Below, piece after piece: positions 5,433 through 27,467 of a DNA stretch of 64,000 nucleotides. Numbering within the stretch: the first letter of the stretch is position 1; every line of letters starts with the position of its first letter. Source of the DNA: Syntrophomonadaceae bacterium. Lineage in GTDB: Bacteria; Bacillota; Syntrophomonadia; Syntrophomonadales; Syntrophothermaceae. The notes beneath the pieces are model-generated. The model searched no databases and was not told the DNA's origin. It saw nothing but the letters and a program-made list of their open reading frames with translations. The stretch covers positions 10,337-74,336 of the forward strand of contig JAAYAC010000146.1 of assembly GCA_012719535.1 (NCBI GenBank), written 5' to 3'. The position numbers and the translations under genes are program-made.

Positions 5433-6308
5433 TTAATAGATATCTACGCCGTCTACTTTAACCAGTTCGCGGAAGTCCTCCAGCAATTGATTGAAGATCG
5501 GTCCCGGCTCACCGTTGCCAATAACCCGGTCATCAATTTTGGTAACGGGAATGAGTTCCGCAGCGGTACCGGTCAGGAAACACTCGTCGGCGGTGAACAG
5601 GTCATAACGTGGCAAAACGGTTTCCTGCACCGGAATACCCCTTTTCTGCGCCAGTTCGATAACCGCATTGCGGGTAACGCCTTCCAGGATACCCAGGTAT
5701 GGCGCCGGGGTTTTGAGTACCCCGTTCTTGACAATAAAGATATTATCTCCGGTACACTCGGCTACGAACCCTTCCTGGTTCAGAAGGACCGCCTCGGGAA
5801 CACCAGCGATGTTCGCTTCAATCTTGGCCATGATATTGTTTAGGTAGTTGAGTGACTTGATGCGGGGGTTGACTCCTTCGGGAATGTTCCTCCGGGTCGG
5901 AACGGTTATTACTGACAAACCGATCCGGTACAGCTCCTCCGGGTACAGGGTAATTGATGAAGCGATATTCACTATAGTTGGTTGCGGGCACTTGTTCGGA
6001 TCCAGGCCGAGGTCGCCTTTCCCGCGGGAAATCACTAAGCGGATATAGGCATCGGTGAGGTTATTGCGACGGCAGGTCTCGCAAACAACCTCAATCATCT
6101 CCTCCTTGGTCAGGGGGACGGCGAGGTTGATAGCCTTGGCTGAATCATACAGGCGATCAATATGCTCTTGCAGGCGGAAGACCTTGCCATGGTAGGCTCT
6201 GATGCCTTCGAACACCCCATCCCCGTAAAGAAAACCATGGTCAAAAACGGATATCTTGGCCTCTTCTTCCGGCACAAATTCTCCGTTGAGATAAATCCAC
6301 AACCCCAT
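5433..6308 (-). CDS. ilvE: branched-chain amino acid aminotransferase (class IV)
   Basis: The ORF extends to 6317. The ATG at 6308 (MGLWIYLNGEFVPEEEAKISVFDHGFLYGDGVFEGIRAY) has SD GGAG 8 nt upstream. The translation has the class IV aminotransferase fold signature. Confidence 0.9.
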   Translation of the reverse strand: MGLWIYLNGEFVPEEEAKISVFDHGFLYGDGVFEGIRAYHGKVFRLQEHIDRLYDSAKAINLAVPLTKEEMIEVVCETCRRNNLTDAYIRLVISRGKGDLGLDPNKCPQPTIVNIASSITLYPEELYRIGLSVITVPTRRNIPEGVNPRIKSLNYLNNIMAKIEANIAGVPEAVLLNQEGFVAECTGDNIFIVKNGVLKTPAPYLGILEGVTRNAVIELAQKRGIPVQETVLPRYDLFTADECFLTGTAAELIPVTKIDDRVIGNGEPGPIFNQLLEDFRELVKVDGVDIY

Positions 6309-6348
6309 CCTAACCACTCCTTCAGATTGTATGATGCCAACAAAAACT

Positions 6349-6632
6349 AAAAACCCCCCGTCCCCACTTCAGGGACGAGAGGTTAATTCCCGCGGTACCA
6401 CCCTGTTTGCCGCCGCACAGCGGCCACTCCAAACGCATAATCGCGATAGTCCTTGGTAACGGACCAACCAGTCCGGCAGCACCTACTAAGCCTTACGGGC
6501 CGTTCAGATTTGCGACTCGAGGATGAGCTCCACACACTGTATTAGTACCGGTTTTCAGCTACCCCGGCTCTCTTTTAACTAAGGGACAGCGTGTGTCCTG
6601 TTCCCGTCATAGTCTTTCTGGAAAATTGATTT
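6349..6632 (-). promoter_or_regulatory. T-box leader (tRNA-sensing riboswitch), candidate Leu CUC specifier
   Basis: On the minus strand, stem I carries an AGAGAG box and a GGTAGCTGAAA distal loop. The specifier loop reads GGAGCUCA, with CUC at 6525-6527 followed by A. The T-box sequence AACAGGGTGGTACCGCGGGA lies at 6388-6407. A terminator (CCTCTCGTCCC-TGAAGT-GGGGACGGGGGG-TTTTT) lies at 6349-6382, directly upstream of ilvE. Confidence 0.85.
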
Positions 6633-6639
6633 GCTTTAT

Positions 6640-6668
6640 AGTATAGGGAAGATCTCAACAGGTGTCAA
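6640..6668 (-). promoter_or_regulatory. sigma-A type promoter of the ilv T-box leader
   Basis: TTGACA (6663-6668), a 17-nt spacer, then TATACT (6640-6645) on the minus strand. Confidence 0.65.
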
Positions 6669-6714
6669 CACGTTCCTTTCCGTACCCGGCAAAAATATTG
6701 GATAACCACCTGGA

Positions 6715-8706
6715 CTACAGGCCGACCTTCTTAATGTACTCCGAAAGGTGCAGGCCGGTATTCACCCCTGTGGCCCGCCGGGCCTTCCGCTGCAGGTTCA
6801 TCTGTTTAAACATCTTCCATAGGAGTTGCCGCCCCTCCATGCTCTGCCTGGCCTCTGCTGGAGAAAGTCCTTGCAGCGGTTTTAAGTTCGAACGGTACCA
6901 TTTTTCCAGGTAAGCCACCTTCAGCTCTCTTTCCAGCTGGGGATACTGTTCCCGGACTTCACGGGTCAGAATCCCAAATAAACCTCCCGGTTTGATTTCC
7001 ATCCCCTCGAATTCCAGGCATTCCTTGATACCCTTTTCAAACCTCTCCCTGACAATAGTAAGCTCCTTGTCGCCAAAGGCTGATACCGTAATCCAATTAT
7101 CCCCTACGACGTACTCAGCCACCAGTTCGCTATTCCCCGACTTTCCGCTGATACGGTATTCATACCATACCTGGCAACGCCCCGGGAGGTTATACTTGAC
7201 CCCCCGAATCTTCTCCAGCTTGGCCAGGATGCCATCCCAATCCCGGATAACATACCGGGCACTCAAGAATCGCATCCCATCTTCGCCGAACCTCTCCCCG
7301 CCGCTTCCCGCCAGGACATCTGCAAAGCTGAGGTACTGTCCGGAAAGGTAGCGGTAGGCCGTCAGGGCGCTGACTTCATGGCCGTTGACATAGACCGTGT
7401 TGCCGCCACGAGTGACGATTTCATGTAACATCTCCAACGAGTTCCGGTCTTTCGCCATAATGACCATTTCATCCCCGTTAATGATTAGATCCGCCAGCAC
7501 TCCGGTAAGGAAAAAGACTCCTTGTTCAAAATCGTCTTCATACCTGGTAATCCTTAGATGTACTCCGTAGGAAAGCTCACCCGCCTCCCTTATGTTGTCC
7601 ACCTCGTCGAGAGAACCGAGCAATTCTTCAACGTCCAGTATCTCGTACACGTTGCAGTAAACCTTGAAGGCAAGCGGATTAAGCTCGGAAAGCCCGCTGA
7701 CAATCTGGTGGGAGTCCTGGAATACCTCAACAATCAACCATCCGTCTTCACCTTTTTTCAGGCGAAAAGAGTACTCGCTGTGGTAAACCTCCTCCTCATC
7801 CATGCTTATGGTATAGGCTTTCACAACCGCGTTATTGCCGGCTACCCGGGTTTTGCTGACCCGACCCTCGATTAGCAGAGCACGATGGTTCATAAGCCTC
7901 TCCAACCGGCGGCCCAGGGAGTGGCGGGGAAATTTTTCGCCGCTGAGCAGGGAATAGATATAGGACATATCTTGCCGGCGCCGGGCGTAAAACAGGCTGT
8001 TGACCAGGCGGTGCGGAGACAACCGGGCGGAAATCCTGGCCAGCAGCTCTATCTGCTCCGCTTCACCCAAGTGGTGGGACATGTCCAAATACTTGCGAAA
8101 AAGAAACCGGCCCAGCCCCGGCCTTGTCATGTACTTGACATTAAAACCATACGCTTCCTGCACCAGGAATGATGCTTCGGCCAGGCTGATTTCTATCAGA
8201 TCGGGTAATGATTCTCTTTCTCTTTCATAGTCTTGCACGGTCATATCCGAAATGGCAAAAGAGCTGTGCAGCCCGTCCAGGCTGTATGAAAGGAAAAAAC
8301 AGTCAACATCCAGTGTTCCGGCCGGATTCCTCCACGCCACATCCACCGTAACCTGTCCAGTATGTCGGCTCCTGGTCGCGAAAGCCCGGTAAAACTCCCC
8401 CCGGCAAAACCGGGGCGGTTCCACACAGATACCGGCCATCTGGTATTTTTCCAGAGCCCTGTTGATGGGGCCTTCCAGTTCCTTGCCGTATTCTTCCTTA
8501 AGCAAATGAAGAAATACCACAAATTCCCTGTCGTAAAAGGCGGACAGGCTCTCAATAACGAAAGGGCGTAAATCGGGAGGTATATCTTCGATTATTTCCA
8601 GAGCAAACAACCTGCCCTCATTATTCTCCATGAGATTCTTTATATCTGCAAATAAACTCCTAATTAAGGATTTAGGAAAAAAATTCTTCCTTTTTCGCTC
8701 CTTCAT
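6715..8706 (-). CDS. large hypothetical protein (about 663 aa), no family recognised
   Basis: Long uninterrupted ORF, 695 aa in the track. The ATG at 8706 (MKERKRKNFF...) has GGAG 8 nt upstream. No motif I can assign. The C-terminal segment is WYRSNLKPLQGLSPAEARQSMEGRQLLWKMF. Confidence 0.7.
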   Translation of the reverse strand: MKERKRKNFFPKSLIRSLFADIKNLMENNEGRLFALEIIEDIPPDLRPFVIESLSAFYDREFVVFLHLLKEEYGKELEGPINRALEKYQMAGICVEPPRFCRGEFYRAFATRSRHTGQVTVDVAWRNPAGTLDVDCFFLSYSLDGLHSSFAISDMTVQDYERERESLPDLIEISLAEASFLVQEAYGFNVKYMTRPGLGRFLFRKYLDMSHHLGEAEQIELLARISARLSPHRLVNSLFYARRRQDMSYIYSLLSGEKFPRHSLGRRLERLMNHRALLIEGRVSKTRVAGNNAVVKAYTISMDEEEVYHSEYSFRLKKGEDGWLIVEVFQDSHQIVSGLSELNPLAFKVYCNVYEILDVEELLGSLDEVDNIREAGELSYGVHLRITRYEDDFEQGVFFLTGVLADLIINGDEMVIMAKDRNSLEMLHEIVTRGGNTVYVNGHEVSALTAYRYLSGQYLSFADVLAGSGGERFGEDGMRFLSARYVIRDWDGILAKLEKIRGVKYNLPGRCQVWYEYRISGKSGNSELVAEYVVGDNWITVSAFGDKELTIVRERFEKGIKECLEFEGMEIKPGGLFGILTREVREQYPQLERELKVAYLEKWYRSNLKPLQGLSPAEARQSMEGRQLLWKMFKQMNLQRKARRATGVNTGLHLSEYIKKVGL

Positions 8707-8961: not shown

Positions 8962-10074
8962 ATGCTAAGGGTTAAAGTAGAATTCTTACAGGTAGGAATG
9001 GAAGTAGCCCGGAACATCTATGACAGTGATGGTAATGTTCTTTTGGCCACGGGCATGATACTGACTGATTACTACATTCGTCGCCTCAGCGAGCTGGGCA
9101 TAGCATCGGTATACATCAAGGACGATGTATTCGACTCCCTTGACGAAGTACAGGATATCATTTCAGAACAAACCCGCCTGGAAACCATTCAGGCGGTCAG
9201 GGAGAGCTTCAGGTCCCTGGAAGCCAACCGGCGCATCAATACCCGGAGTGTAAAAAAGGTGGTTGACGCGATCCTTGATGATCTGCTGTCCAACCCCCAA
9301 ATCCTGGTTAACCTGAGCGACATACGCAGTTACGATGACTACACCTTCGGGCATTCGGTCAACGTATGCGCACTGTCCCTGCTCACAGGTATTACTTTGG
9401 GTTATGATGAGCTCAGGCTTAAAGAGCTGGGGATCGGAGCATTGCTGCACGATATAGGTAAGATTCGCCTGGACAAGGATTTATTAAACAAGCCAGGCGG
9501 GTTTAACGAAGATGAATATAATCAAATAAAGCAACACACCATCCAGGGTTACAAAATACTGCGAACCTACGATGATATCCCGCTCCTGTCGGCCCACATC
9601 GCCCTGCAACATCATGAACGCTGGGACGGCAACGGCTACCCGCGCGCCCTGCGTAAAGAAGAGATCCACGAGTATGCTCGTATTGTTGCCGTGGCCGATG
9701 TATATGATGCCCTGTTGGCAGATCGTCCATACCGCTCCGGGTATTCGGTCAACCAGGCCGTGGCCATTCTGACCCGCATGTCCAACATGTATTTTGAACC
9801 TCGCTCTCTGGCCGCCCTGGTGGGCAACATCGCCATCTACCCGATCGGCAGTGTGGTGACCCTGAACACCGGCGAAATCGGAATGGTAATTGATGTAAAC
9901 CGTAACGCTCCTACCCGCCCGGTCGTCAGGGTGGTCTTTGACCGGAACCGGAAAAGGCTGACCCCCCCACGCGAGATAGATCTCACCAGGTTTACCACCG
10001 TATATATAGCGCGCGTTCTCAACGAGCAGGAAATCCTCAGGATAAAAGGTGGAGGCGAGTTCATAGACAGTTAA
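8962..10074 (+). CDS. HD-GYP domain protein (probable cyclic-di-GMP phosphodiesterase)
   Basis: 370 aa. Contains the HD motif LLHDIGK and the HHERWDGNGYP signature of the HD-GYP subfamily. Confidence 0.88.
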   Translation: MLRVKVEFLQVGMEVARNIYDSDGNVLLATGMILTDYYIRRLSELGIASVYIKDDVFDSLDEVQDIISEQTRLETIQAVRESFRSLEANRRINTRSVKKVVDAILDDLLSNPQILVNLSDIRSYDDYTFGHSVNVCALSLLTGITLGYDELRLKELGIGALLHDIGKIRLDKDLLNKPGGFNEDEYNQIKQHTIQGYKILRTYDDIPLLSAHIALQHHERWDGNGYPRALRKEEIHEYARIVAVADVYDALLADRPYRSGYSVNQAVAILTRMSNMYFEPRSLAALVGNIAIYPIGSVVTLNTGEIGMVIDVNRNAPTRPVVRVVFDRNRKRLTPPREIDLTRFTTVYIARVLNEQEILRIKGGGEFIDS

Positions 10075-10362
10075 CCATATCAAACGGTCAATTGTCATTT
10101 TGTGGCTGGCATAAAAATCGTTACTGTCAAAAAAATAATACCGGGGTGATTGATTTGACAGTAAAGATTTTGGCGGCCTTTCTACTTGTTTTCATCGCCG
10201 GTTCCATGCTATATGTATTGATTCACAAAGTGCTTCCCTCCGTAATGAGCAAAAGGTAAGCCATTACAGTACTGCTCGCCGGGCTGGGCTGGACTTAGCT
10301 GGCTTTACGAAATATTTGGGCCATGGATCGCAAAAACTAAACCAAAAGGAGGGATCTCCGGC

Positions 10363-10512
10363 ATGTTTAGACGCAACCTTGACGGCAGCCGCAAACCCGC
10401 ATGGAAGTATGAGTACCTGGCGGTTCCCATCGCCTTCATCAACGGGCTGTTCTTCGGCGGCTATATCCTGCGCAAGATGCGCCAGTACTGGGAAAGAGGC
10501 CCCATGGACTAG
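10363..10512 (+). CDS. small membrane protein (49 aa), hypothetical
   Basis: Not in the ORF track because it is under 60 aa. ATG preceded by AAAGGAGGG at about 10 nt. The product MFRRNLDGSRKPAWKYEYLAVPIAFINGLFFGGYILRKMRQYWERGPMD has one predicted TM helix. It is followed by the hairpin at 10564-10586. Confidence 0.5.
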   Translation: MFRRNLDGSRKPAWKYEYLAVPIAFINGLFFGGYILRKMRQYWERGPMD

Positions 10513-12146: not shown

Positions 12147-13823
12147 CTATTCCACTCCGAGGTAAGCATGATAGCGCTCCAGCTCCTCGTCTTTCAACTG
12201 GTTCACCAGGGAAACCGCGTACTGGATAATATCCTCCGCTTCTCCCTGGAGCTGTTGGCGTACCAGTTCCGCAAAGGGAACCGCCTCAATACTCTTGATG
12301 ACCTCCGACAGTGGAGTACTGGCGAAGAAGTTGTTAAACATACCCATCAGGTTGTGAAAAAACTCATGGGTCCATTCCTCGACCGCTTCCCGGTCCCGCT
12401 CCAGGCTGGGGAATTTACGAGCACTGTCCGCCGGTTCGGGCTGCAGGGCCGCAATCAGCGATCGGGCCTCCCGGATGGCTCTTTCAACCGCCTGGGGGGC
12501 CGTTCCTCCTGGAAGTTGTCGTTTGTTGATACATCCTTCCAGGGAGATATGGTCATAGACATCCGTGTCCACAAGCTCGCAGAACCCTTTGAATTCTTGC
12601 ATGTCTAGCTCTTCCAGGGATTTCTGGTGTTCCAGGCAGTACAACACCGCCCTGCCGATCACCTCGTGGGCGGTTCGGAAGGGTAATCCTTTGGCTACCA
12701 GGTAATCAGCCAGGTCCGTGGCGTTGGTAAAACCTCCCCGGGCCGCCTCCTTCATTCGTTCCCGGTTAACCTTCATAGTTCGTAGCATCGGCGCGCAAAT
12801 CCTCAGACACTGCTTAAGGGTATCGACCCCGTCAAACAGCGCCTCTTTGTCCTCCTGAAGGTCCTTGTTATAGGCCAAGGGCAGGCCTTTCATCACGGTC
12901 AGTAGTGCCATCAGGTCACCATAGACCCGGCCTGTCTTCCCCCGTATCAATTCGGCAACATCAGGATTTTTTTTCTGCGGCATGATGCTGGATCCGGTAG
13001 CGAAAGCGTCATCCATTTCTACAAAGCTGAATTCCCCGGTCGACCACAGCACCAGTTCTTCGCACAACCGGGAAAGGTGCATCATGGTTATGCTGGCCAC
13101 GCTGAGGAACTCGAGCGCGAAGTCCCGATCGCTGACTGCGTCCAGGCTGTTTCGCGTCAGCTCGGCAAAACCCAACTGCTGGCGAACATAGTCCCGGTCC
13201 AGGTTGAACCCGGTTCCCGCGAGGGCCCCGGACCCCAGGGGCATGACATCCAGCCGGCGGCGGCAGTCGTTCAACCTGCCCAGATCGCGGTAGAACATCT
13301 CGAAGTAAGCCATGAGGTGATGAGCCAGGGTTACCGGTTGAGCTTTCTGTAAGTGGGTATAGCCGGGCATGATGCTGTCCAGGTGCTGGGCGGCCAAATC
13401 AAGCAGGGTCTCTTCCAGAGCGAGCAGTAACTGCTGGACCTCGTCGAGCTGTTCCCTGAGATACATCCTCATGTCCAGGGCCACCTGGTCGTTACGGCTC
13501 CGGCCGGTATGCAGCTTCTTACCGGTTTCGCCAATCCTTTCAATCAGCCAACTTTCTATCTGGCTATGGACATCTTCGGCCGGGGGGCCGAATTGTAGCA
13601 CTCCGGCCTCGATTTCGGCCAGGATATCCTGTAACGCTTCCAGAATGATATCCTTTTCTTCCTCGCTGATTATCCCCTGGCGGGCCAACATGGCGACATG
13701 GGCCATGCTCCCCTGAATATCCTGTCGGTACATCCGCTGGTCGAACGAGATTGAGGCATTGAACTCATCGGTCAGCTGGTCCGCCGGCCGGGTGAATCTT
13801 CCTCCCCACAGTTTCATAAGCAT
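12147..13823 (-). CDS. argH: argininosuccinate lyase with an approximately 95-aa C-terminal extension
   Basis: 558 aa. The fumarate-lyase signature [12 protein letters not shown] is present and the ArgH-like body runs to about residue 460 ([22 protein letters not shown]). The frame then stays open for about 95 more codons. Confidence 0.9.
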
Positions 13824-15025
13824 CCCTTCCCGGTTTGTCTTTGCATCATGGCCCTCACCTTGAGGGGCAGGCCGAATAAGGCTATGAACCCTTCGGCGTC
13901 TTTGTGGTTGTAAAAATCATCCTCGCCGAAGGTAGCCAGATCCTGGCGGTACAGCGAATAAGGAGATTCCACCCCCACCGGCGTACAGTTGCCCTTGTAC
14001 AGTTTGACCCGTACCCGCCCGGTAACTGTTTCCTGGGTTTTGTTGACAAAGGCATCCAGGGCCTCCCGTAAAGGAGAATACCACCAGCCGTCGTAAACTA
14101 GTTCGGCGTACAGCAGAGCTACCTGTTCCTTGAAATGCATGGTTTTCCGGTCCAGGGTCACGGACTCAAGCTCCCGGTGCGTCAGATACAGCACCGTCCC
14201 CCCGGGGCATTCGTAAACTCCCCGGGATTTCATACCCACCAAGCGGTTTTCAACCAGGCTGATGATACCAACTCCATTGGCACCGGCCACCCGGTTGAGT
14301 TCTTCGATAAGTTCGACCGGGCCGTACTTCCGGCCGTTAATGCCTACCGGTACACCCTCCTCATACTCGATTTCCAGGTAGGTTGGGTTGTCCGGTGCTT
14401 TTTCGGGCGGCACGGTCAACATGTATAAGTCGTCCGGGGGTTCCTGCATCGGGTCTTCCAGGTTGCCGCCCTCATGGGAAAGGTGCCACAAGTTGCGGTC
14501 CCGGCTGTATATTTTCTCTTTGGTAACCGAAACCGGCACATTATGTTTGCGGGCATATTCTATGGCATCCTCACGGGACTTTATGTTCCACTCCCGCCAG
14601 GGAGCCACTATTCTCAGCCCCGGGTTAAGGGCATGACCGCCGACCTCAAACCTCACCTGATCATTGCCCTTGCCGGTTGCCCCGGGAGCTACAGCAACAG
14701 CGCCTTCTTTCTCAGCAACCTCCACCAGTTTCTTGGCAATAAGCGGGCGGGCAAAAGAAGTTCCCAGTAGGTATTTTCCTTCATAAATCGCGCCGGCACG
14801 CAACACCGGGAAAATGAAGTCCCGGGCAAATTCCTCCCGTAAATCCTCAATGTAGATTTTGCTGGCCCCGGACTTGAGCGCCTTTTCCTCCAGGCCCGCC
14901 AGTTCTTCATTCTGGCCCAGGTCCGCGCACATAGCTATGACCTCATAACCGTAGTTTTCCTTTAACCACGGAATGATAATAGAGGTATCCAAACCACCGG
15001 AATACGCCAGAACCACTTTTTCCAC
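13814..15025 (-). CDS. argG: argininosuccinate synthase
   Basis: 403 aa with N-terminal [12 protein letters not shown]-binding motif. GTG start with SD GGAGGAG. Its 3' end overlaps the argH start by 10 nt. Confidence 0.95.
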
Positions 15026-15082
15026 TTCGTTTCTCCTCCAATCCCCGTCTCGTAAGCCTGCCTCACAGAAATTTCAAGAATC

Positions 15083-16402
15083 TCAAGCCTGACCCCCGGC
15101 CAAAACCAACCGTCCCAGTTGGGGAGTACCGATTTCCTCCAATCCGTACCTGACTCGTACCGCCGGTTTATTGAGAGACATTACCCGGCGCAGGTCAATA
15201 GGGGTCCCTATTACCACCAGCTCGGCCGGTACACGGTTGATGGTCTCCTCCAGTTCCCTTATTTGTTCTTCCCCGTATCCCATGGCCGGGAGCAGTCTGG
15301 AAAGGTGAGGGTACCTGGTGAAAGTGTCCCGGATAGACCCTATCGCGTAGGGGCGGGGGTCCACCAGTTCTCGGGCCCCCAGCTTCTCGGCCGCTATTAC
15401 TCCGGCCCCGTACCTCATTTCTCCATGAGTAAGGGTAGGGCCGTCCTCGATGACCAAAACCTGCTTGCCCCGAACCTCCTCCGGGCGATCCACGGTGATA
15501 GGCGAGTTGGCCATGATAATCGTCGCCCCCGGATTGAGTTTTTGTATTGAGGCTCGCACATGCTCCACTTCCACAGGGTCAGCCGAGTCGACCTTGTTTA
15601 TTATAGCGATGTGGGCCATACGCAAATTCGTTTCACCTGGATAGTAAGTAGTTTCATGTCCCGGCCGGTGTGGATCCACCACTACGATGTGAACATCGGG
15701 ACGATAGAATGGAATATCGTTGTTGCCCCCGTCCCACAGGATGGTATCTGCTTCCTCTTCCGCCTGGTGCAGGATGGCCTCGTAATCAATCCCGGCATAC
15801 ACCACTATTCCATTCTCAATATGCGGTTCGTATTCTTCCCTTTCCTCAATGGTGCACCGGTGCCGATCAAGATCCTGCAAACTGGCAAAACGCTGCACCA
15901 CCTGTTCATCAAGCTTACCGTAAGGCATGGGATGCCTGACGATGGCCACTTTTTTCCCAGCTTCGGTCAGTAGCCTGGCTATATAACGCGTAGTCTGGCT
16001 CTTCCCGGCCCCGGTGCGGACTGCCGTAACCGCCACCACCCGGCGGCGGGATTTTAGCATGGTTCTCGCCGGTCCCATCAGCCTAAAGTCGGCCCCGCAG
16101 GCCGTTACCAGTGAGGCCTGGTGCATTACATACTCGTGCGATACATCGCTGTACGCGAAGACCACCTGGTCGGCCCGGTATTCCTTGATGAGCCTGGGCA
16201 GCTCCTCTTCCGCGTAGATGGGAATACCTTCCGGATAGCCCTCTCCGGCCAGGCACGCCGGGTAAACCCTCCCCTCGATATCCGGTATCTGCGTCGCGGT
16301 GAACCCTACTACTTTGTAGGCCGGGTTGTTGCGAAAGTAGGTATTGAAATTGTGAAAGTCCCTCCCCGCAGCTCCCATAATTATGACTTGGTCGACTTTC
16401 AT
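15083..16402 (-). CDS. P-loop NTPase, COG2403 / cyclic-2,3-diphosphoglycerate-synthetase-like family (function unknown)
   Basis: 439 aa from the ATG at 16402, with SD AGGAGGAAG upstream. Walker A motif is VRTGAGKSQTT. The 537-aa ORF in the track is a spurious 5' extension that overlaps the GNAT gene. The family call is from memory of the COG2403 architecture. Confidence 0.75.
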   Translation of the reverse strand: MKVDQVIIMGAAGRDFHNFNTYFRNNPAYKVVGFTATQIPDIEGRVYPACLAGEGYPEGIPIYAEEELPRLIKEYRADQVVFAYSDVSHEYVMHQASLVTACGADFRLMGPARTMLKSRRRVVAVTAVRTGAGKSQTTRYIARLLTEAGKKVAIVRHPMPYGKLDEQVVQRFASLQDLDRHRCTIEEREEYEPHIENGIVVYAGIDYEAILHQAEEEADTILWDGGNNDIPFYRPDVHIVVVDPHRPGHETTYYPGETNLRMAHIAIINKVDSADPVEVEHVRASIQKLNPGATIIMANSPITVDRPEEVRGKQVLVIEDGPTLTHGEMRYGAGVIAAEKLGARELVDPRPYAIGSIRDTFTRYPHLSRLLPAMGYGEEQIRELEETINRVPAELVVIGTPIDLRRVMSLNKPAVRVRYGLEEIGTPQLGRLVLAGGQA

Positions 16403-16442
16403 CAATCTCTTCCTCCTTGTGGTAGGGATATTGGGATTACTC

Positions 16443-16898
16443 TTAACAGCCACATCCTTTCTCTGTCTCGTCAGTATCCCGGGTAAACACCTTAATATCC
16501 CCCCGCAACAACCACCCCGTACACTGATAAAACTTAATAGCGGCTTCGTTGGTGCCAAAAACAAAAAGATGGATCTTCTTAACTCCCAGTTTAGTGAACT
16601 CCTCGGTAACCTTCTTAACCAGAGCCGTACCGCAACCACGTCTCCGGTAGTCGGGGTGTACCGCCAGGTGGTATACATACCCGCGTCGCCCGTCATACCC
16701 CCCCAGAATCGTACCGATGACCCGTGCCCCGTCCTTCAACACCTGACAGGTAGACGGGTTCCTCGCCAGGAACACCTGCAAACGGTCTTCCTCATCCCCC
16801 CAGCCCAACCCCAGTCCCGGAATAGACCTCCACAGGTCAAGCATCGCTTTAATATCGTTGGACTGTGCCGGTTCGGGTACCCAGGAACATCTCCCCAT
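16443..16898 (-). CDS. GNAT family N-acetyltransferase
   Basis: About 151 aa. Acetyl-CoA binding motif is HPDYRRRGCGTALV. The ATG at 16898 has a GGGGGTG SD. The GTG at 16904 is an alternative start. Confidence 0.85.
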   Translation of the reverse strand: MGRCSWVPEPAQSNDIKAMLDLWRSIPGLGLGWGDEEDRLQVFLARNPSTCQVLKDGARVIGTILGGYDGRRGYVYHLAVHPDYRRRGCGTALVKKVTEEFTKLGVKKIHLFVFGTNEAAIKFYQCTGWLLRGDIKVFTRDTDETEKGCGC

Positions 16899-16916
16899 GT
16901 ACACACCCCCGCCGCA

Positions 16917-17864
16917 TCACTGCATTACCAGGGCCATAATTGCCTTCTGAGCATGGAGCCGGTTTTCAGCTTCATCGAATACCACCGAATGCGGCCCGTC
17001 CATGACCTCATCAGTCAGCTCCCGTCCTCGCTTGGCAGGCAGGCAGTGCATAATGATTACATCGTCTTTCGCTGCGGCTACCAGCCGGTTGTTAACCTGG
17101 TACCTGGCAAAGTGCTTCTCTTTTTCAGCAGCTTCCTTCTCCTGGCCCATGCTGGCCCAGACATCGGTATAGATTATATCCGCCCCTTCAACTGCCTCGA
17201 AAGGATCCTCCACCACCCACAGCCTGGCACCGGTGGCCTCGGCGTCCGCGCGAGCCAGGGCCAGTATCTCCGGCTGCGGTTCAAATCCCGGAGGCCCGGC
17301 GACCACCACGTCCATCCCTACCTTGGCTCCGCCAAAAAGCAGGGAATGGCACACATTGTTACCATCCCCAATAAAGGCGCATTTTAAACCCTTGAGGGTT
17401 CCTTTATACTCGAGGGCCGTCAGCAGGTCGCCCATCACCTGGCAAGGATGCAGGAGGTCGGTCAACCCGTTGATTACGGGTATGCTGGCATGATGAGCCA
17501 ACTCCAGAACCTCGTCGTGGTCAAAGGTACGGATCATGATGCCGTCCAGGTAACGGGAAAGCGTTAGGGCGGTATCCTTGATGGTTTCCCCGCGCCCCAT
17601 CTGCAAATCGTTGGGACTCAGAAAGAGGCCGTATCCACCCAGTTGATAGATGCCAACTTCGAATGAAACCCGGGTCCGGGTGGATGGTTTCTGGAAGATC
17701 ATTCCCAGAGTTTTACCGGCCAGTAACGGGTGGGGAATCCGGTCCTTCTGTAAAGCCTTCAGTTGCAGGGCCAGGTCAAGTACCTCGGCTACTTCCGCTG
17801 TACTGTAATCGTGGATGCTGATAAAGTCACGTCCCTTGAAGGCTGGATTAAGCTTAACAGTCAT
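16917..17864 (-). CDS. argF: ornithine carbamoyltransferase
   Basis: 315 aa with the motifs STRTRVSFE, the DxxxSMG-type region (DVWASMGQE) and HCLPA. Confidence 0.95.
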   Translation of the reverse strand: MTVKLNPAFKGRDFISIHDYSTAEVAEVLDLALQLKALQKDRIPHPLLAGKTLGMIFQKPSTRTRVSFEVGIYQLGGYGLFLSPNDLQMGRGETIKDTALTLSRYLDGIMIRTFDHDEVLELAHHASIPVINGLTDLLHPCQVMGDLLTALEYKGTLKGLKCAFIGDGNNVCHSLLFGGAKVGMDVVVAGPPGFEPQPEILALARADAEATGARLWVVEDPFEAVEGADIIYTDVWASMGQEKEAAEKEKHFARYQVNNRLVAAAKDDVIIMHCLPAKRGRELTDEVMDGPHSVVFDEAENRLHAQKAIMALVMQ

Positions 17865-17866
17865 TC

Positions 17867-18943
17867 TTAACTGCCCCCTTTCCGGCTCAAGCTGGTAAGA
17901 AATCCCTGGAATACCCGGATAAACTCCTCTTTATCCTGGGGATGATACTGAACCGAGTAGATGGGTAATCGCTTGTGACAAAGCCCTTCCACGGTATGGT
18001 CATTAAGGTGGCGCCGGGTTATTTCCACGTCTCCGGGCACGTTATCGTCCTTTACCACATAGTTGTGGTGCTGCGCAGTGATACTGACGCGGGTTCCACC
18101 TGTCTCTTTTACCGGATGGTTGGCACCGTGGTGCCCGAAGTGCATCTTTGTGACCTCGAGCCCCAGGGCCAGGGCCAGTATCTGATGCCCCAGGCCTACC
18201 CCGGCTATAGGCAGGTGACCCATAAAATGCTTGACTGCTTCAATTACCGGCATCGCCTGGCGCGGATCCCCTGGACCATTGGAGAAAAACAGCCCGGCGG
18301 CACCGAGTTCCTCCAGGGCCGCTATCGAGGTATCGGCCGGAACCACCACCAGGCGGCAACCGGTTTCCTGCAAGAGTTTCAGCAAAGAACGCTTAATTCC
18401 CAGGTCCACTACCGCCAGCAAGGGACCGCTTCCCTCTATCTTATAGACCCGGGGAGTGCTGGCCGCTTTTATTTCCGGCCAGCCCACCGGTTGCAGTTCC
18501 TTTATCCTGGCCAGTAAGCCATCCGGGTTATCCACGTCTTGCGGCCGGGAGGAGATTATACCCAGCATGCTTCCCTTCTCACGCAGCAGGCGGGTTAACT
18601 GCCGGGTATCCACCTGGCTGATGCCTACCACTTTTTCTTGTTGCAGGTACTCGTTCAGGGTCATTTCCATTTTCCAGTTGTTAGGTTCTTTGCTGACCTC
18701 CCGCACCACCAGCCCGGGGGTGAAGGCCCTGGCTCCTTCCGCCTCAGATGGACTGACACCGTAGTTGCCGATCATCGGGTAAGTGAAAACAACCAGTTGG
18801 CCACTGTAGCAGGGGTCGGTAACAACATGCTGATGCCCTACCATTCCGGTGTTGAAAATCACCTCTCCGCCGGCGACACCCTGGTAGCCGAAACCCTCCC
18901 CTATAAACCGGGACCCGTCTTCCAAAACCAGGATCGCTTTCAT
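17867..18943 (-). CDS. carA: carbamoyl-phosphate synthase small-subunit homologue lacking the glutaminase Cys and Glu
   Basis: 358 aa from the ATG at 18943, which forms an ATGA overlap with the argD stop. Full-length CarA-like sequence, but the nucleophile elbow reads AGVGLGHQ and the His/Glu region reads QYHPQD. Confidence 0.85.
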   Translation of the reverse strand: MKAILVLEDGSRFIGEGFGYQGVAGGEVIFNTGMVGHQHVVTDPCYSGQLVVFTYPMIGNYGVSPSEAEGARAFTPGLVVREVSKEPNNWKMEMTLNEYLQQEKVVGISQVDTRQLTRLLREKGSMLGIISSRPQDVDNPDGLLARIKELQPVGWPEIKAASTPRVYKIEGSGPLLAVVDLGIKRSLLKLLQETGCRLVVVPADTSIAALEELGAAGLFFSNGPGDPRQAMPVIEAVKHFMGHLPIAGVGLGHQILALALGLEVTKMHFGHHGANHPVKETGGTRVSITAQHHNYVVKDDNVPGDVEITRRHLNDHTVEGLCHKRLPIYSVQYHPQDKEEFIRVFQGFLTSLSRKGGS

Positions 18944-20145
18944 TCGTTCGCCCACTCCTTTAAAGCCGTCTTTAAGATATCCAGGGCCGCGTCAAGCTCT
19001 TCCCCGGTTATGGTATACGGGGGGAGAAACCTGAGTACACGGGGACCTGCCGAGATAAGGAGTAGCCCTTTTTGCAAGCATAGGTCCACCAGGGGCTTTA
19101 CCTCCCGGGTAAACTCCACCCCCAGCATCAAACCCAGGCCCCTCACCTGTACCACGTCGTCTCTTCCTGCAACCAGAGCCGTAACTTGCTGGTGCAGGTA
19201 GCCGCCCATCCGGGCTACATTCTCCAGAACTCCCGAGTTGACAATGATATCTATCACCCGGCCCGCCACAGCACAGGCCAGGGGATTCCCGCCGAAAGTG
19301 GAAGCGTGGTCTCCGGGGGCAAAGGCCCGGGCCACCTCCTCCCTCGCCAGCAGTGCCCCGATGGGGAAGCCCCCACCCAGTGATTTGGCCAGGGTAACCG
19401 CGTCCGGTTCAATCCCGTAGTGCTGGTAGGCGAACACCTGCCCGGTGCGGCCCATCCCGCATTGAACCTCGTCCAGTACTAGAAGAAGCCCATGCCTATC
19501 GCACAGCTCGCGAAGGCCCTTCATAAACCCGGGGTCGGCCGGGTTGACTCCCCCTTCCCCTTGAACCGGTTCAACTATAATCGCCCCCGTGTTATCCCCC
19601 AGTAGTGCCTTTACGGAATCCAGGTCATTAAAATCGGCGTACTTGAACCCCGGCACCAGCGGAGTAAAGCCCCGGTGGTATTTCTCCTGTCCGGTGGCGG
19701 TGAGGGCACCCAGAGTCCGACCGTGAAATGAATTGTTAAAGACGATGATCTCGCAGCCGGGTTTTCCCTGCCGGCTCCAGTACTTACGCACCAGCTTGAT
19801 AGCAGCTTCATTGGCCTCCGCGCCGCTATTGGCAAAAAAAGCCTTATCCAACCCGGAATACTGGCAGAGCTTGGCGGCCAATTCCACCTGGGGTTCTATC
19901 CAATAGAGGTTGGAGCAATGCCAGAGAGTCTCTGCCTGCTTGTGCAAGGCCTCAAGCAATTCGGCATGGGCGTGTCCCAGGCCGCATACCGCCAGCCCGC
20001 TGGTCAGGTCGAGGTACTCCTTGCCATCAGCATCCCATACCCGGGCGCCCTTTCCCTGTACCAGCGCTACAGGGAAACGCCCATAAGTGTTCATAACATA
20101 TTGCTGTCCTTTTTGTATTACGGCTTCGTTACTAATCAACCTCAC
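18940..20145 (-). CDS. argD: acetylornithine aminotransferase
   Basis: 401 aa class III PLP aminotransferase with the motifs LVLDEVQCGMGRTG and TLAKSLGGGFP. Confidence 0.93.
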   Translation of the reverse strand: MRLISNEAVIQKGQQYVMNTYGRFPVALVQGKGARVWDADGKEYLDLTSGLAVCGLGHAHAELLEALHKQAETLWHCSNLYWIEPQVELAAKLCQYSGLDKAFFANSGAEANEAAIKLVRKYWSRQGKPGCEIIVFNNSFHGRTLGALTATGQEKYHRGFTPLVPGFKYADFNDLDSVKALLGDNTGAIIVEPVQGEGGVNPADPGFMKGLRELCDRHGLLLVLDEVQCGMGRTGQVFAYQHYGIEPDAVTLAKSLGGGFPIGALLAREEVARAFAPGDHASTFGGNPLACAVAGRVIDIIVNSGVLENVARMGGYLHQQVTALVAGRDDVVQVRGLGLMLGVEFTREVKPLVDLCLQKGLLLISAGPRVLRFLPPYTITGEELDAALDILKTALKEWANE

Positions 20146-20148
20146 CCC

Positions 20149-21009
20149 CTATCCGTTTACCACCATGCTGCCGATGCCCTCGTCAGTAAATATCTCCAGT
20201 AAGATAGCATGCGGGATACGCCCATCTATGATATGAGTCCGGGCAACACCACCCCGTAAGGCTTGCACGCAACACTCGATCTTGGGGATCATGCCTCCAC
20301 TTACGATTCCGCAATCGACATAGGAATCAACCTCGGAGACCCTGATACGAGAGATACGACTGGCAGGATCGTTCCGGTCCGCCAGGATACCTGGAACATC
20401 GGTCAGCAGGACAAGTTTGTCGGCGCGCAACGCGCTGGCCACCGCCCCCGCCACGTGGTCGGCGTTAATATTGTAACTGTGCTGATCGTCTCCAATCCCC
20501 ACCGGGCTTATGACGGGAATGTAGCCCTTCTCGGTAATGGTCTCGATCAGCTCCGTGTTGATTTCCCTAACTTCCCCCACATAACCCAGCTGTTCCTTAC
20601 CCGGCATCCGCCGGGCCCGAATAAGCATACCGTCCTTGCCTGACAACCCAACCGCCCGGCCCCCGCTCTCGTTCAGCCCAGCCACGATCTCCTTGTTGAT
20701 TTTGCCCACCAGAACCATCTCCACGATCTCCATGGTAGCCTGGTCGGTGACCCGGAGACCATCGACGAAGCGGGTCTCGATACCTACTCGCTGCAGCATA
20801 GTGGTAATGTCAGGGCCTCCCCCGTGGACCACTATCGGGCGCATCCCCACATAATGCATCAGAACGATGTCCTCCATGACCGACTTTTTCAGCCGGCAGT
20901 CAGTCATGGCGCTACCTCCGTACTTCACGACTACGGTCTTTCCGTAAAACTCTTTTATGTAGGGCAGTGCTTCCACCAGTATGCCTGCCTTTTCACACGC
21001 GGTTATCAT
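20149..21009 (-). CDS. argB: acetylglutamate kinase
   Basis: Translation contains [22 protein letters not shown]. The ATG at 21009 has GGGGGG 6 nt upstream. The ORF extends to 21042 (TTG) as an alternative start. Confidence 0.9.
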
Positions 21010-21133
21010 TAAATCCCCCCAAGCTTGCCCAATCTCTTTCAATGCAACATGCCGGCTTGCCGTTTCAGCAGTGCTTATGCCCCCCCAGCCTTAAACGGCA
21101 CAACCTGCATTTCACAATTTCAAGCCTGACCCC

Positions 21134-22339
21134 CTAGGTTCTATAGCTGGCGTTGATGGTAACGTAATCGTGGGTGAGGTCACATCCCCAGGCCGTAGCC
21201 GCTGCGGAGCCGTCCTTGAGATTAAGACGGATGCGCACGGTTTCCTGCTGCAACTCCTGCCGCGCCCGGTCCTCGTCAAACACCAATCCCATTCCGTTTT
21301 CGGCTACCTGCACCTCACCCAGGTAGATGTCTACCTTGTCAGGGTCAAAGTCGCCTCCTGAATAACCGGCTGCGCAGATTACCCGCCCCCAGTTGGCATC
21401 CTCGCCAAAGACCGCCGCCTTGGTGAGATTGGATGTGGTTATCGCCCTGGCAATCCGGCGGGCTGCATCCTGGGAGCGGGCATTCACTACCTCCACCGCG
21501 ATGAGGCGGGTGGCCCCCTCCCCATCGCGGGCAATCTTCTTGGCCAATTCAATGTTCACATAGTCAAGAGCCTCCCGGAAAGACTGGTACCCTGCCGACG
21601 TCACATCCTTAATCTCCGGGTTGCCTGCCAGCCCGCTTGACAGAATAACTACCATATCGTTGGTGGAAGTGTCCCCATCCACACTCACCATGTTATAGGA
21701 AACGTCAACCGACTCGCGCAGGGCCTGGCGCAAACACTCCTGGCTAATGTTGACATCCGTAGTGATAAAACTTAGCATCGTTGCCATGTTGGGATGTATC
21801 ATCCCCGAACCCTTGGCTATAGCCCCAATACGAACCGGGTGGCCATCGACATCCACCTGAACCGCGATTTCTTTGGGAACCGTGTCGGTGGTCATGATGG
21901 CCTCGGCAGCGCAATGCGACCCGCCTACGCTCAGGGTACGACAGGCCTGTTTAATACCGGCGCACACCCTGTCCATAGGCATGGGAACGCCGATAACACC
22001 GGTTGATGCTACAATAACATCAGCATCATCAATGTGTAGCACCCGGGCAACCGTTTCCGCCATCAGCCGGGTATCCGCCTCTCCCTGCGGACCGGTACAG
22101 GCATTGGCATTCCCGCTGTTGGCCACAATGGCCCGGGCATACCCGTCGGCGAGTACGCTCTGGTTATAGGTGATACAGGAAGCCCGTACCTTGTTGGTGG
22201 TAAACATCCCGGCCGCACGGCATCGCTTAGCGGCGAAAATTACTGCTACATCTTTCTTATCCTTCTTCTTTATTTCCGCACATACCCCCTGGGCGAGAAA
22301 CCCCTGGGGTGCGCATAGTCCATTCTTAAGTAATTCCAT
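21134..22339 (-). CDS. argJ: bifunctional ornithine acetyltransferase / N-acetylglutamate synthase
   Basis: 401 aa. The autoproteolytic site context is PNMATMLSFITTD. Confidence 0.93.
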   Translation of the reverse strand: MELLKNGLCAPQGFLAQGVCAEIKKKDKKDVAVIFAAKRCRAAGMFTTNKVRASCITYNQSVLADGYARAIVANSGNANACTGPQGEADTRLMAETVARVLHIDDADVIVASTGVIGVPMPMDRVCAGIKQACRTLSVGGSHCAAEAIMTTDTVPKEIAVQVDVDGHPVRIGAIAKGSGMIHPNMATMLSFITTDVNISQECLRQALRESVDVSYNMVSVDGDTSTNDMVVILSSGLAGNPEIKDVTSAGYQSFREALDYVNIELAKKIARDGEGATRLIAVEVVNARSQDAARRIARAITTSNLTKAAVFGEDANWGRVICAAGYSGGDFDPDKVDIYLGEVQVAENGMGLVFDEDRARQELQQETVRIRLNLKDGSAAATAWGCDLTHDYVTINASYRT

Positions 22340-22356: not shown

Positions 22357-23415
22357 TTACGGAAAGATGCCGCCGAACTTCAGTCCCTCGGTTTCCTCCA
22401 CGCCAAACATGAGATTGAAATTCTGGATGGCCTGGCCTGAAGCCCCTTTAGTCAGGTTATCCAGAGCCGAGATAACAATCACCTTGCCCTTCACCTCATC
22501 AATAAACAGGCCTATATCCAGGAAGTTGCTGCCGTAAACCCATCTAGTATGCGGGGATACCCCCTCTGGCAACATCCTGATAAAATACTCCCCCGCATAT
22601 TGGTCATGAAAGGCATCCCTCACTTGCGACGCAGTCACTCCCGGCCGCAATCGTGCGTAGGCGGTAGTCAGTATGCCCCTGCTCATGGGGATGAGGTGGG
22701 GAGTAAATGTAACCTCCACATCCTGTCCGGCAACCAGGCTCAGTTCCTGGACTATCTCGGGTAGGTGCCGGTGGTTGCCTACCCCGTACGCTTTAACCCC
22801 TTCGTTCACCTCACAGAAGTGGCGGGTAAGCTTCAAACTCCTCCCAGCGCCCGATACCCCGCTTTTGGAATCGACAATTATTCCTTCAGTGGCAATGAGC
22901 CCGTTTCTTAACAAGGGAGCTAGGGCCAGAATAGCCCCGGTAGGGAAACATCCCGGATTAGCAACCACCCTGGCTTCACGCACGCGGGAACGGTATAACT
23001 CGGGCAAACCGTACACGGCCGATTTCAGCATGTCCGGCGCCTCATGCACTACTTCATAGTACTCCTCATACACCCGGGGATCCTGGAGCCGGAAATCGGC
23101 CCCCAGGTCAATACACCTCACGCCGGCTTCGACGAGCTCTTTGACCACCGGGACAGACAACCCGTGAGGCAGGGCCAGAAACACTGCCTGGCACTCCTGT
23201 TTCATTCGGTTAAGGTCGGTTTGTTCACACCTGGCTTCCGTAAAACGGAGCAGGTGCGGATAGACCTCGACAATATCTTTCCCAATGTTCTCGGTAGAAA
23301 AAACGATTACCGCCCGGGCATCCCTATGCCCTCCCAGTATCCGCAGCAAATCGGCGGCAGTGTAACCGTCCCCGATTATTCCTACCGGTATCACATTCAT
23401 TACCTCCCTGTTCAT
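22357..23415 (-). CDS. argC: N-acetyl-gamma-glutamyl-phosphate reductase
   Basis: About 350 aa with the active-site region VANPGCFPT. The start is ambiguous: ATG 23415, ATG 23400 or GTG 23394 around a GGGAGG SD. Confidence 0.92.
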   Translation of the reverse strand: MNREVMNVIPVGIIGDGYTAADLLRILGGHRDARAVIVFSTENIGKDIVEVYPHLLRFTEARCEQTDLNRMKQECQAVFLALPHGLSVPVVKELVEAGVRCIDLGADFRLQDPRVYEEYYEVVHEAPDMLKSAVYGLPELYRSRVREARVVANPGCFPTGAILALAPLLRNGLIATEGIIVDSKSGVSGAGRSLKLTRHFCEVNEGVKAYGVGNHRHLPEIVQELSLVAGQDVEVTFTPHLIPMSRGILTTAYARLRPGVTASQVRDAFHDQYAGEYFIRMLPEGVSPHTRWVYGSNFLDIGLFIDEVKGKVIVISALDNLTKGASGQAIQNFNLMFGVEETEGLKFGGIFP

Positions 23416-23447: not shown

Positions 23448-23476
23448 ATTATACATATCGCCGCATATCCTTGCAA
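23448..23476 (-). promoter_or_regulatory. sigma-A promoter of the arg operon with an overlapping ARG-box-like site
   Basis: TTGCAA (23471-23476), a 17-nt spacer, then TATAAT (23448-23453) on the minus strand. TGTATAATTATTAG (23442-23455) matches 11 of 14 positions of the TGAATWWWWATTCA ArgR/AhrC half-site consensus as I recall it. Confidence 0.6.
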
Positions 23477-26466: not shown

Positions 26467-27465
26467 TCAAGCTTTATACGCCACAACTGCTCCGCACGCG
26501 GAGCAATGCCCGTCTTTTTCCCCCGTGATGCTGGTAAGGTACCCGTCCCGGCGGATAAGGACATTGCCACAGCTGGGACATCGCGTGTTATTGTCAAAGC
26601 CACCTATGTTACCTACATAAACATAGTTCAAAAACCGACGGGCAATCTCCCGGGCCGCTGCTAGCGACTCAACCGGAGTGGGAGGCAGGCGAAATCGGTA
26701 GGCGGGATGATAGCGGGAGAGATGAAGTACCAGGTTCGGGTCCAGGGAGGCCAACCAGGTGGCCAGTTTTTCTATCTCTCCCGGGCTATCATTAAGACCT
26801 GGCACCAGCAAGGTAGTGACTTCGACGTGGGTTTGTTCCCGGCAAAGTTCGATCGTCCTCATGACCGGAGCCAGCCGACCCCGGCAGGTGTGCCGGTAGA
26901 AACTTTCGTTGAAGGCTTTAAGGTCGATGTTCATGGCATCTATGTATGGCAGCAGTTCGCGCAGTGGTTCCTCCTCAATATAACCGTTGGTAACCAGAAC
27001 ATTCTTGAGTCCCTGGCAATGAGCCAGCCGCGCGGTATCCAGCACGTATTCATACCACATACCCGGCTCCGAGTAGGTGTAGGCGAGCCCGAGCGAACCC
27101 TGTTCGCGAACCTCTACGGCCGTCGCTACCAGCTGCTTGGGGCTGGCATAAGACGTTGGAGGGGTACCGTGAGCCAGGGAATAGTTTTGACAGAAGCCAC
27201 AAGCCAGGTTGCAGCCTGTGGTACCCACAGACAGGATGTTACGGCCGGGGAAGAAATGATAAAGCGGCTTCTTTTCCACTGGATCAATCGCGATAGCCCC
27301 AATTTCGCCATAGTTCAGGGTATACAGTTCCCCGCCCTCGTTCTTGCGTACCCGGCACAGGCCCACTTCACCCTCCTTGATCCTGCAACCATGGGGGCAC
27401 AGGTCGCACTGAACCCGGTTGTCCCTGTTACGTTCATGCCAGAACAGTGCTTTTCTCCTAGCCAT
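26467..27465 (-). CDS. radical SAM enzyme of the AmmeMemoRadiSam type (PFL-activase-like)
   Basis: 332 aa. The CNLACGFCQN cluster motif is CxxxCxxC. There is an additional N-terminal CDLCPHGC and a C-terminal CPSCG...CSACG. It lies 2 nt downstream of the AMMECR1 fusion gene. Confidence 0.8.
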   Translation of the reverse strand: MARRKALFWHERNRDNRVQCDLCPHGCRIKEGEVGLCRVRKNEGGELYTLNYGEIGAIAIDPVEKKPLYHFFPGRNILSVGTTGCNLACGFCQNYSLAHGTPPTSYASPKQLVATAVEVREQGSLGLAYTYSEPGMWYEYVLDTARLAHCQGLKNVLVTNGYIEEEPLRELLPYIDAMNIDLKAFNESFYRHTCRGRLAPVMRTIELCREQTHVEVTTLLVPGLNDSPGEIEKLATWLASLDPNLVLHLSRYHPAYRFRLPPTPVESLAAAREIARRFLNYVYVGNIGGFDNNTRCPSCGNVLIRRDGYLTSITGEKDGHCSACGAVVAYKA

Positions 27466-27467
27466 GC

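Follow-up and report, generated by a model that had tools for sequence, protein, structure and literature searches.

In a 64,000-nt stretch of contig JAAYAC010000146.1 from a Syntrophomonadaceae bacterium (hereafter the window), two genes lie between argF and argG within a row of arginine biosynthesis genes, one encoding a GNAT acetyltransferase and one a P-loop protein of 439 amino acids. We assign the P-loop gene to the arginine synthetase family as arcE, its activity being predicted from sequence, and propose that the enzyme, apparently co-transcribed with the biosynthetic arg operon, most likely works in the synthetic direction, parallel to ArgG/ArgH. We consider this the best explanation overall (probability about 0.7). 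Arginine synthetase was discovered only in 2024, when TK2200 (ArcE) of Thermococcus kodakarensis was characterized by biochemistry and genetics (Michimori, Yokooji, Atomi 2024, PMC11032458). It catalyzes the reversible reaction citrulline + NH3 + ATP <-> arginine + ADP + Pi and is also described as an ATP-forming arginine deiminase (PMC11032458). It has been studied solely as a catabolic, ATP-yielding enzyme of an archaeon, and its discoverers could only speculate on arginine synthesis by ArcE in some bacteria. The enzyme is therefore already known; what is new is its context, an arcE gene inside a biosynthetic operon together with argG, argH and a conserved GNAT gene, in the absence of the catabolic partners.

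The assignment rests first on homology. BLASTP aligned the window ArcE with a 451-aa open reading frame (ORF) of genome G141 over 432 aa, with 66% identity, 83% positives and no gaps. We take G141 to be T. kodakarensis KOD1 and the ORF to be TK2200; this ORF is the only homolog of the window ArcE in that genome and is located at 1.984 Mb, where we would expect TK2200. When further Thermococcus genomes were located via their family-B DNA polymerase and then searched with the window ArcE, exactly one homolog was found in 60 of 62 genomes (66–68% identity, including the five genomes first searched). The Walker A motif of the arcE product reads AVRTGAGKSQTT (GAGKSQTT), confirming the TGAGKSQTT motif and the length of 439 aa given in the initial annotation of the window. 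The motifs TIEEREEYEP, WDGGNND and NKxD (NKVD) are present as well, and the protein agrees with every invariant column in an alignment of 10 family members from archaea and bacteria. The family is large, with more than 8000 homologs sharing 62–79% identity across Bacteria and Archaea, among them members from Bacillota, Chloroflexota, Thermotogota, Bathyarchaeia, Thermoplasmatota and Heimdallarchaeota. The initial annotation had regarded the P-loop family as uncharacterized and its gene as lying outside the arginine pathway. The first view is superseded by the 66% identity to the presumed T. kodakarensis enzyme (PMC11032458), and, judged by sequence, the gene belongs to a family that catalyzes a step of the arginine pathway. 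Homology searches thus did not lead to families unrelated to arginine but to ArcE, and the suggestion of an arginine-related module was borne out by this identity.

Formerly, TK2200 itself went under the names hypothetical protein or GTPase; it shows weak similarity to cyclic 2,3-diphosphoglycerate synthetase (cDPGS) and structural similarity to LpxK, and its gene is often found near arcB and arcC (PMC11032458). Similar resemblances appear for the window protein and raise the alternative that it is a cDPGS or a generic GTPase chaperone of the CobW/HypB/UreG type. Many homologs carry the NCBI name “cyclic 2,3-diphosphoglycerate synthase”, Pfam, which like NCBIfam offers no specific family for the protein, reports a weak CobW P-loop match (26.9 bits), and cDPGS is the best PDB match both by sequence and by fold. 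However, the phmmer match to cDPGS is partial (23.7 bits, E = 2e-4), and the HypB model of NCBIfam is reached with only 16 bits against a cut-off of 121. Foldseek, run with an AlphaFold2 model of the 69%-identical Aciduliprofundum ortholog (pLDDT 87), placed cDPGS on top (8oru/8ork, E = 1e-17), with only 17–20% identity in the structural alignment, followed by Aquifex LpxK (4ehx/4ehy), which is consistent with the fold reported for TK2200p (PMC11032458). According to this model, the protein would share the overall fold class and the P-loop with the Methanothermus fervidus cDPGS (8ork, 8oru), its best structural match, which differs in acting on another substrate and forming an intramolecular phosphoanhydride, and is not an ortholog. 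The kinship to cDPGS noted initially is therefore real but remote, and the NCBI name is an over-transfer at the family level. With 66% identity to the presumed TK2200, a function as cDPGS or GTPase chaperone is effectively refuted.

The neighborhoods of ArcE genes agree with this assignment. We clustered gene neighbors first for 80 loci and then for 142 unique loci spanning many phyla. Within 4 kb of the ArcE genes of the 142 unique loci, carbamate kinase was found 27 times, ornithine carbamoyltransferase (OTC) 22 times and either of them in 38 loci, in agreement with the published clustering of arcE, arcB and arcC. Rarer neighbors were pyrroline-5-carboxylate dehydrogenase, a class III aminotransferase and sucCD-ndk. 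These surroundings have to do with arginine, citrulline and carbamoyl phosphate rather than with phosphoglycerate or metal centers, which also speaks against the cDPGS or GTPase alternative. Some loci showed further features. A Symbiobacterium metagenome-assembled genome (L017) contains two arcE copies (6001–7299 and 9223–10497) flanking a large membrane glycosyltransferase-like gene, and the same glycosyltransferase-like gene lies downstream of a single arcE in L047. In four Bacillota loci from other lineages (L015, L017, L034, L047), an AmmeMemoRadiSam pair, consisting of a LigB/AMMECR1 fusion and a radical SAM enzyme, is located directly beside arcE; such a pair (40–46% identity) is also present in the window at ~26467–29608, ~10 kb from arcE. 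A family-B DNA polymerase 80–99% identical to the T. kodakarensis (KOD) enzyme is encoded on three short contigs (L199, L212, L225) of assemblies labeled Clostridiales, Clostridiaceae and Chryseobacterium, most likely because PCR-reagent or expression-plasmid DNA contaminated these assemblies.

The second line of evidence is the position of arcE. According to Pfam and NCBIfam, the arg genes of the window form a single row on the minus strand in the order argC-argJ-argB-argD-carA*-argF-GNAT-arcE-argG-argH, as initially proposed, where carA* denotes a CarA homolog with a dead glutaminase site. The features are:

23448–23476, minus strand: promoter-like site TTGCAA-17-TATAAT 5′ of argC (consensus match only)
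22357–23415, minus strand: argC (translation; syntenic argCJBDF blocks in relatives)
21134–22339, minus strand: argJ (translation; syntenic argCJBDF blocks in relatives)
20149–21042, minus strand: argB (translation; syntenic argCJBDF blocks in relatives)
18940–20145, minus strand: argD (translation; syntenic argCJBDF blocks in relatives)
17867–18955, minus strand: carA*, glutaminase-dead CarA homolog (TIGR01368, 372.6 bits)
16917–17864, minus strand: argF, ornithine carbamoyltransferase (TIGR00658, 429.8 bits; NF001986, 443 bits)
16443–16904, minus strand: GNAT acetyltransferase, YpeA/PA4534-like (PF00583, 70.5 bits)
15083–16402, minus strand: arcE, 439-aa P-loop protein, predicted arginine synthetase (66% identity to presumed TK2200)
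13814–15025, minus strand: argG, argininosuccinate synthase (translation; 85% identical to argG of the sister genomes G003 and G004)
12147–13823, minus strand: argH, argininosuccinate lyase with a fused C-terminal extension of ~95 aa (TIGR00838, 659 bits, residues 5–456)

The distances are 12 nt from the argF stop codon to the GNAT start, 40 nt from the GNAT stop codon to the arcE ATG and 57 nt from the arcE stop codon to the argG GTG, reproducing the coordinates and the tight same-strand spacing of 12–57 nt described initially, while the reading frames of argG and argH overlap. The arcE ATG is preceded by a strong ribosome-binding site, AAGGAGGA, and a 537-aa ORF listed for the same gene is merely an upstream extension of the 439-aa arcE. 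Translation of the GNAT from its GTG gives 153 aa, and use of the in-frame ATG at 16898 gives 151 aa. Along the operon, GC content stays even. The best minus-strand match to the promoter consensus in the region lies just upstream of argC, and terminator-like sites occurred about as often as in shuffled sequences (13 versus 12.3 expected), with none convincing from argF to argG and only a weak one at the arcE/argG junction. Searches for an ARG-box consensus gave 16 matches versus 17 expected in shuffles, and Rfam revealed no riboswitch or leader in this arg operon or in the operons of relatives; its sole T-box match (L194) is far from arg genes. Because only 40 and 57 nt separate arcE from its neighbors in the argF–argG interval, its ribosome-binding site is strong and no terminator there is credible, arcE is apparently co-transcribed with the biosynthetic genes, which argues for an anabolic role.

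The third line of evidence, and the strongest on the direction in which ArcE runs, comes from related genomes. We surveyed 125 genomes of the same GTDB order (Syntrophomonadales), including a high-quality subset of 77. The gene arcE was detected in 59 and argG in 79 of the 125 genomes, the presence of argH tracking that of argG. Both arcE and argG were found in 21 genomes (16 in the high-quality subset), arcE only in 38 (18), argG only in 58 (42) and neither of them in 8 (1). In 14 of the genomes with both genes, including that of the window, arcE adjoins argG at a distance of 35–187 nt.

Within the GTDB family of the window, three states occur at one syntenic locus, next to which the same tRNA gene is found each time. 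One sister genome (G003) has argCJBDF-GNAT-argG-argH, a second (G001) has argCJBDF-GNAT-arcE and has lost argG and the ArgH core, and the window genome (G000) combines both routes as argF-GNAT-arcE-argG-argH, which looks like an intermediate state. The retention of arcE in operons that keep argCJBDF while argG and argH vanish suggests that ArcE does the job of ArgG/ArgH, and the three operon states across the order support the anabolic reading further. A genome that we take to be Syntrophomonas wolfei (G090) contains an ArcE 78% identical to that of the window and lacks argG and argH. The discoverers of ArcE named S. wolfei as positive for ArcE and negative for argininosuccinate synthase and lyase (ASS/ASL), suggesting a biosynthetic use there (PMC11032458), and the gene content of G090 agrees with this pattern. 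This S. wolfei-type pathway, in which ArcE is combined with carbamoyl-phosphate synthetase (CPS), ornithine synthesis and ArcB, thus belongs to the same order and shares the GNAT-arcE pair with the window. It differs in that the pair lies apart from the other arg genes and that ASS/ASL are missing, whereas the window has both routes in one operon.

Several argH genes of the order are interrupted by a single in-frame stop codon. They were found in G079 (C55:9946–11310), G068 (C1:286847–288217), G091 (C14:49699–51051) and G070 (C68:357–1715) and may be decaying genes or assembly errors; G079 is positive for arcE and negative for argG.

The known ArcE-ArcB-ArcC pathway is catabolic and yields two ATP per arginine (PMC11032458). 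For the window, a corresponding alternative is that ArcE converts surplus arginine to citrulline and ATP, after which the adjacent OTC would release ornithine and carbamoyl phosphate, the latter serving to make pyrimidines and to mature [NiFe]-hydrogenase, as it does in T. kodakarensis. The chemistry is compatible with this, as the equilibrium lies toward citrulline and ATP (PMC11032458), and ArcE and ArcB have been found to supply carbamoyl phosphate in Thermococcus (2026 follow-up study). An OTC that could take the role of ArcB is present with argF two genes upstream of arcE, and most ArcE loci of other phyla are catabolic. The genome content, however, points in the other direction. The window genome is 98% complete, and carbamate kinase (ArcC) is absent from it: the best TIGR00746 match, ArgB, scores 30 bits, below the cut-off of 358, and tblastn with a carbamate kinase from other arcE loci gave no match. 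A search for arginine deiminase in the same genome gave none either. A full CPS is encoded, carB being located on contig C148, where it neighbors a pyrB-like gene, and canonical carA on C76; hence, unlike in Thermococcus, arginine is not needed as a source of carbamoyl phosphate. The location of arcE within a biosynthetic operon and the 38 relatives that keep it but have lost argG and argH, a pattern hard to reconcile with an enzyme serving catabolism alone in argCJBDF operons, also argue against the catabolic alternative. We therefore regard the catabolic explanation as rather unlikely and consider it probable that ArcE works anabolically in this lineage. With TK2200 the window ArcE shares the gapless full-length similarity, the P-loop and WDGGNND motifs, the length class, the remote link to the cDPGS and LpxK folds and a wide distribution among anaerobes. 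The setting is different: the T. kodakarensis enzyme acts in catabolism with ArcB and ArcC in an arginine auxotroph, whereas the window arcE is preceded by a GNAT gene in a biosynthetic operon, with ArgG/ArgH present and carbamate kinase absent.

If ArcE works in the synthetic direction, citrulline made by ArgF would be used by both ArcE and ArgG. ArcE would provide a last step that needs a single enzyme and no aspartate, converting ATP to ADP and Pi and taking its nitrogen from free ammonia. ArgG/ArgH would run in parallel, converting ATP to AMP and PPi and taking nitrogen from aspartate. Plentiful free ammonia would then favor ArcE and scarce ammonia ArgG/ArgH, an arrangement that would resemble glutamate dehydrogenase versus the glutamine synthetase–glutamate synthase couple. 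Family assignment, operon layout, the missing catabolic partners and gene replacement among relatives are seen in the data; we infer the flux direction, the ammonia logic and whatever role the GNAT may have.

The GNAT gene is a real, order-specific companion of arcE and the late arg genes. Orthologs were identified in 68 of the 125 genomes, adjoining arcE in 51, adjoining argG in 15 that lack arcE and standing alone in two. The gene thus adjoins arcE in 51 of the 59 arcE genomes (86%), so that the linkage is not confined to one strain, and it is present in 16 of the 58 argG-only genomes (28%). A hidden Markov model built from 34 orthologs detected no such GNAT beside arcE in ~137 loci of other phyla, showing the pairing to be order-specific, and a scan of the genome contigs with the single GNAT sequence yielded four loci, of which those outside the order are not linked to arg genes. 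The protein contains the acetyltransferase domain PF00583 (Acetyltransf_1, 70.5 bits), with the acetyl-CoA motif RRRGCGTAL conserved in the 34 orthologs. Its best NCBIfam model is PRK03624 (NF002959, YpeA), with 98.5 bits against a cut-off of 124, and its best PDB relatives are 4ubr, 5ib0 and YpeA (4qus, 2pdo), with E-values from 1e-16 to 4e-19. The closest relatives are therefore Escherichia coli YpeA and Pseudomonas PA4534, equal in size and acetyl-CoA motif, although these are not linked to arg genes and have no known substrate, and the window GNAT stays below the PRK03624 cut-off. In G090 and many relatives, the GNAT-arcE pair lies apart from the other arg genes. In G090 an AIR-synthase-family protein of the PurM/HypE/ThiL/SelD type (367 aa, L193:9132–10235) is encoded 36 nt upstream of the pair; should this neighbor be HypE-like, carbamoyl phosphate would have a further consumer there.

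Our best guesses for the GNAT are an anaplerotic N-acetylglutamate synthase (NAGS) of a new subfamily or an acetyltransferase modulating ArcE. As a short single-domain NAGS, an idea already raised in the initial annotation by analogy to Mycobacterium, it would prime the acetyl cycle of ArgJ. Mycobacterium possesses single-domain NAGS enzymes, and certain marine gamma-proteobacteria have a GNAT domain fused to their ArgH, giving precedent for a NAGS linked to late arg genes. The stable presence of the GNAT in arg operons of the order, following argF even in the 15 arcE-less genomes, would fit this function. However, all NAGS models were failed by a wide margin (bits versus cut-off: TIGR01890 17.7/202.85, NF003641 16.7/344, NF049894 (CG3035) 18.4/280 and, for the Rv2747 type, NF005921 18.8/180), the nearest relatives YpeA and PA4534 have no known function, the GNAT is far more frequent in arcE genomes than in argG-only genomes, and in the S. 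wolfei-like G090 it accompanies arcE rather than argCJBD. Moreover, argJ is present, so that a NAGS is not strictly required. A NAGS function is thus possible but doubtful, and we give about equal, likewise tentative, weight to an acetyltransferase directed at ArcE or acting otherwise in the arginine pathway.

The third unusual gene of the operon, carA*, is not part of the conserved module. Its product lacks the glutaminase Cys and Glu (GVGLGHQ and YHPQ, versus GICLGHQ and FHPE in the canonical CarA from C76), so that the description as a dead CarA was correct, whereas the carB gene assumed missing is present on C148. A search of the order's remaining 124 genomes found no carA* ortholog, the best match being a canonical carA with 45% identity, and carA* is thus a lineage-specific insertion between argD and argF. 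Of the trio of GNAT, P-loop and inactive CarA genes proposed to co-occur, only the GNAT-arcE pair is conserved.

Several points weigh against the anabolic reading. The equilibrium constant of ~10 toward citrulline and ATP at 80 °C and the millimolar Ks for NH3 (PMC11032458) imply that net synthesis requires high ammonium or a high ATP/ADP ratio. Anaerobic digesters, from which the assemblies of many of the closest relatives originate, fit the condition of ample ammonium. The discoverers assumed that organisms possessing ArcE together with ASS/ASL use ArcE solely for arginine breakdown (PMC11032458), an inference that also favors the catabolic alternative for the window. Co-expression of ArcE with ArgG/ArgH could make a futile cycle unless regulated. 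The GNAT matches no family of known substrate, and its link to arcE could partly reflect shared ancestry, for instance one joint deletion, rather than function; phylogenetic non-independence may inflate the association. Lastly, G141 and G090 are only presumed to be T. kodakarensis and S. wolfei, respectively, and the anabolic role proposed for this ArcE is read from sequence and gene context.

Taken furthest, the data would allow a bolder and considerably less certain interpretation. ArcE may be the native last step of arginine biosynthesis in Syntrophomonadales that has repeatedly displaced ArgG/ArgH, the window representing the two-route intermediate. The GNAT could then be a dedicated partner of ArcE, for example an acetyl-CoA-dependent switch blocking the arginine-wasting reverse reaction, or a NAGS of a new type, and with the glutaminase-dead CarA the operon might be tuned to free ammonia and ATP saving. 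If true, an operon of this kind would be well matched to a syntrophic life close to the thermodynamic limit. ATP-limited syntrophs of ammonia-rich digesters are a setting in which a biosynthetic ArcE can be tested, and the operon context makes the question of bacterial arginine synthesis by ArcE directly accessible to experiment. The locus in the window and its relatives, with sister genomes showing every stage, represent the clearest genomic case so far for a biosynthetic ArcE; if confirmed, the textbook claim that all life makes arginine via argininosuccinate needs qualification. The conserved GNAT partner poses a well-defined puzzle that is likewise accessible to enzyme assays.

Two further observations concern the 3′ part of the operon. 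The C-terminal extension of ArgH (window positions 12147–12440) matches a free-standing ORF located just downstream of arcE in G001 (L195:6217–6483), with 49% identity over ArgH residues 470–558 (E = 2e-23). In G003 and G004 the tail is likewise part of ArgH (open frames of 583–596 aa), whereas in G002 it is not (470 aa). It thus has the look of a small protein of its own that was joined to ArgH within the family of the window. In addition, a sequence of ~30 nt (GGGGGTCAGGCTTGA.ATT..TGAAAT) is common to the argJ/argB junction (21104–21134) and the arcE/argG junction (15057–15097), where it covers the final codons and the stop codon of arcE; recombination may have left it as a scar, or it may serve both junctions as an intercistronic signal.

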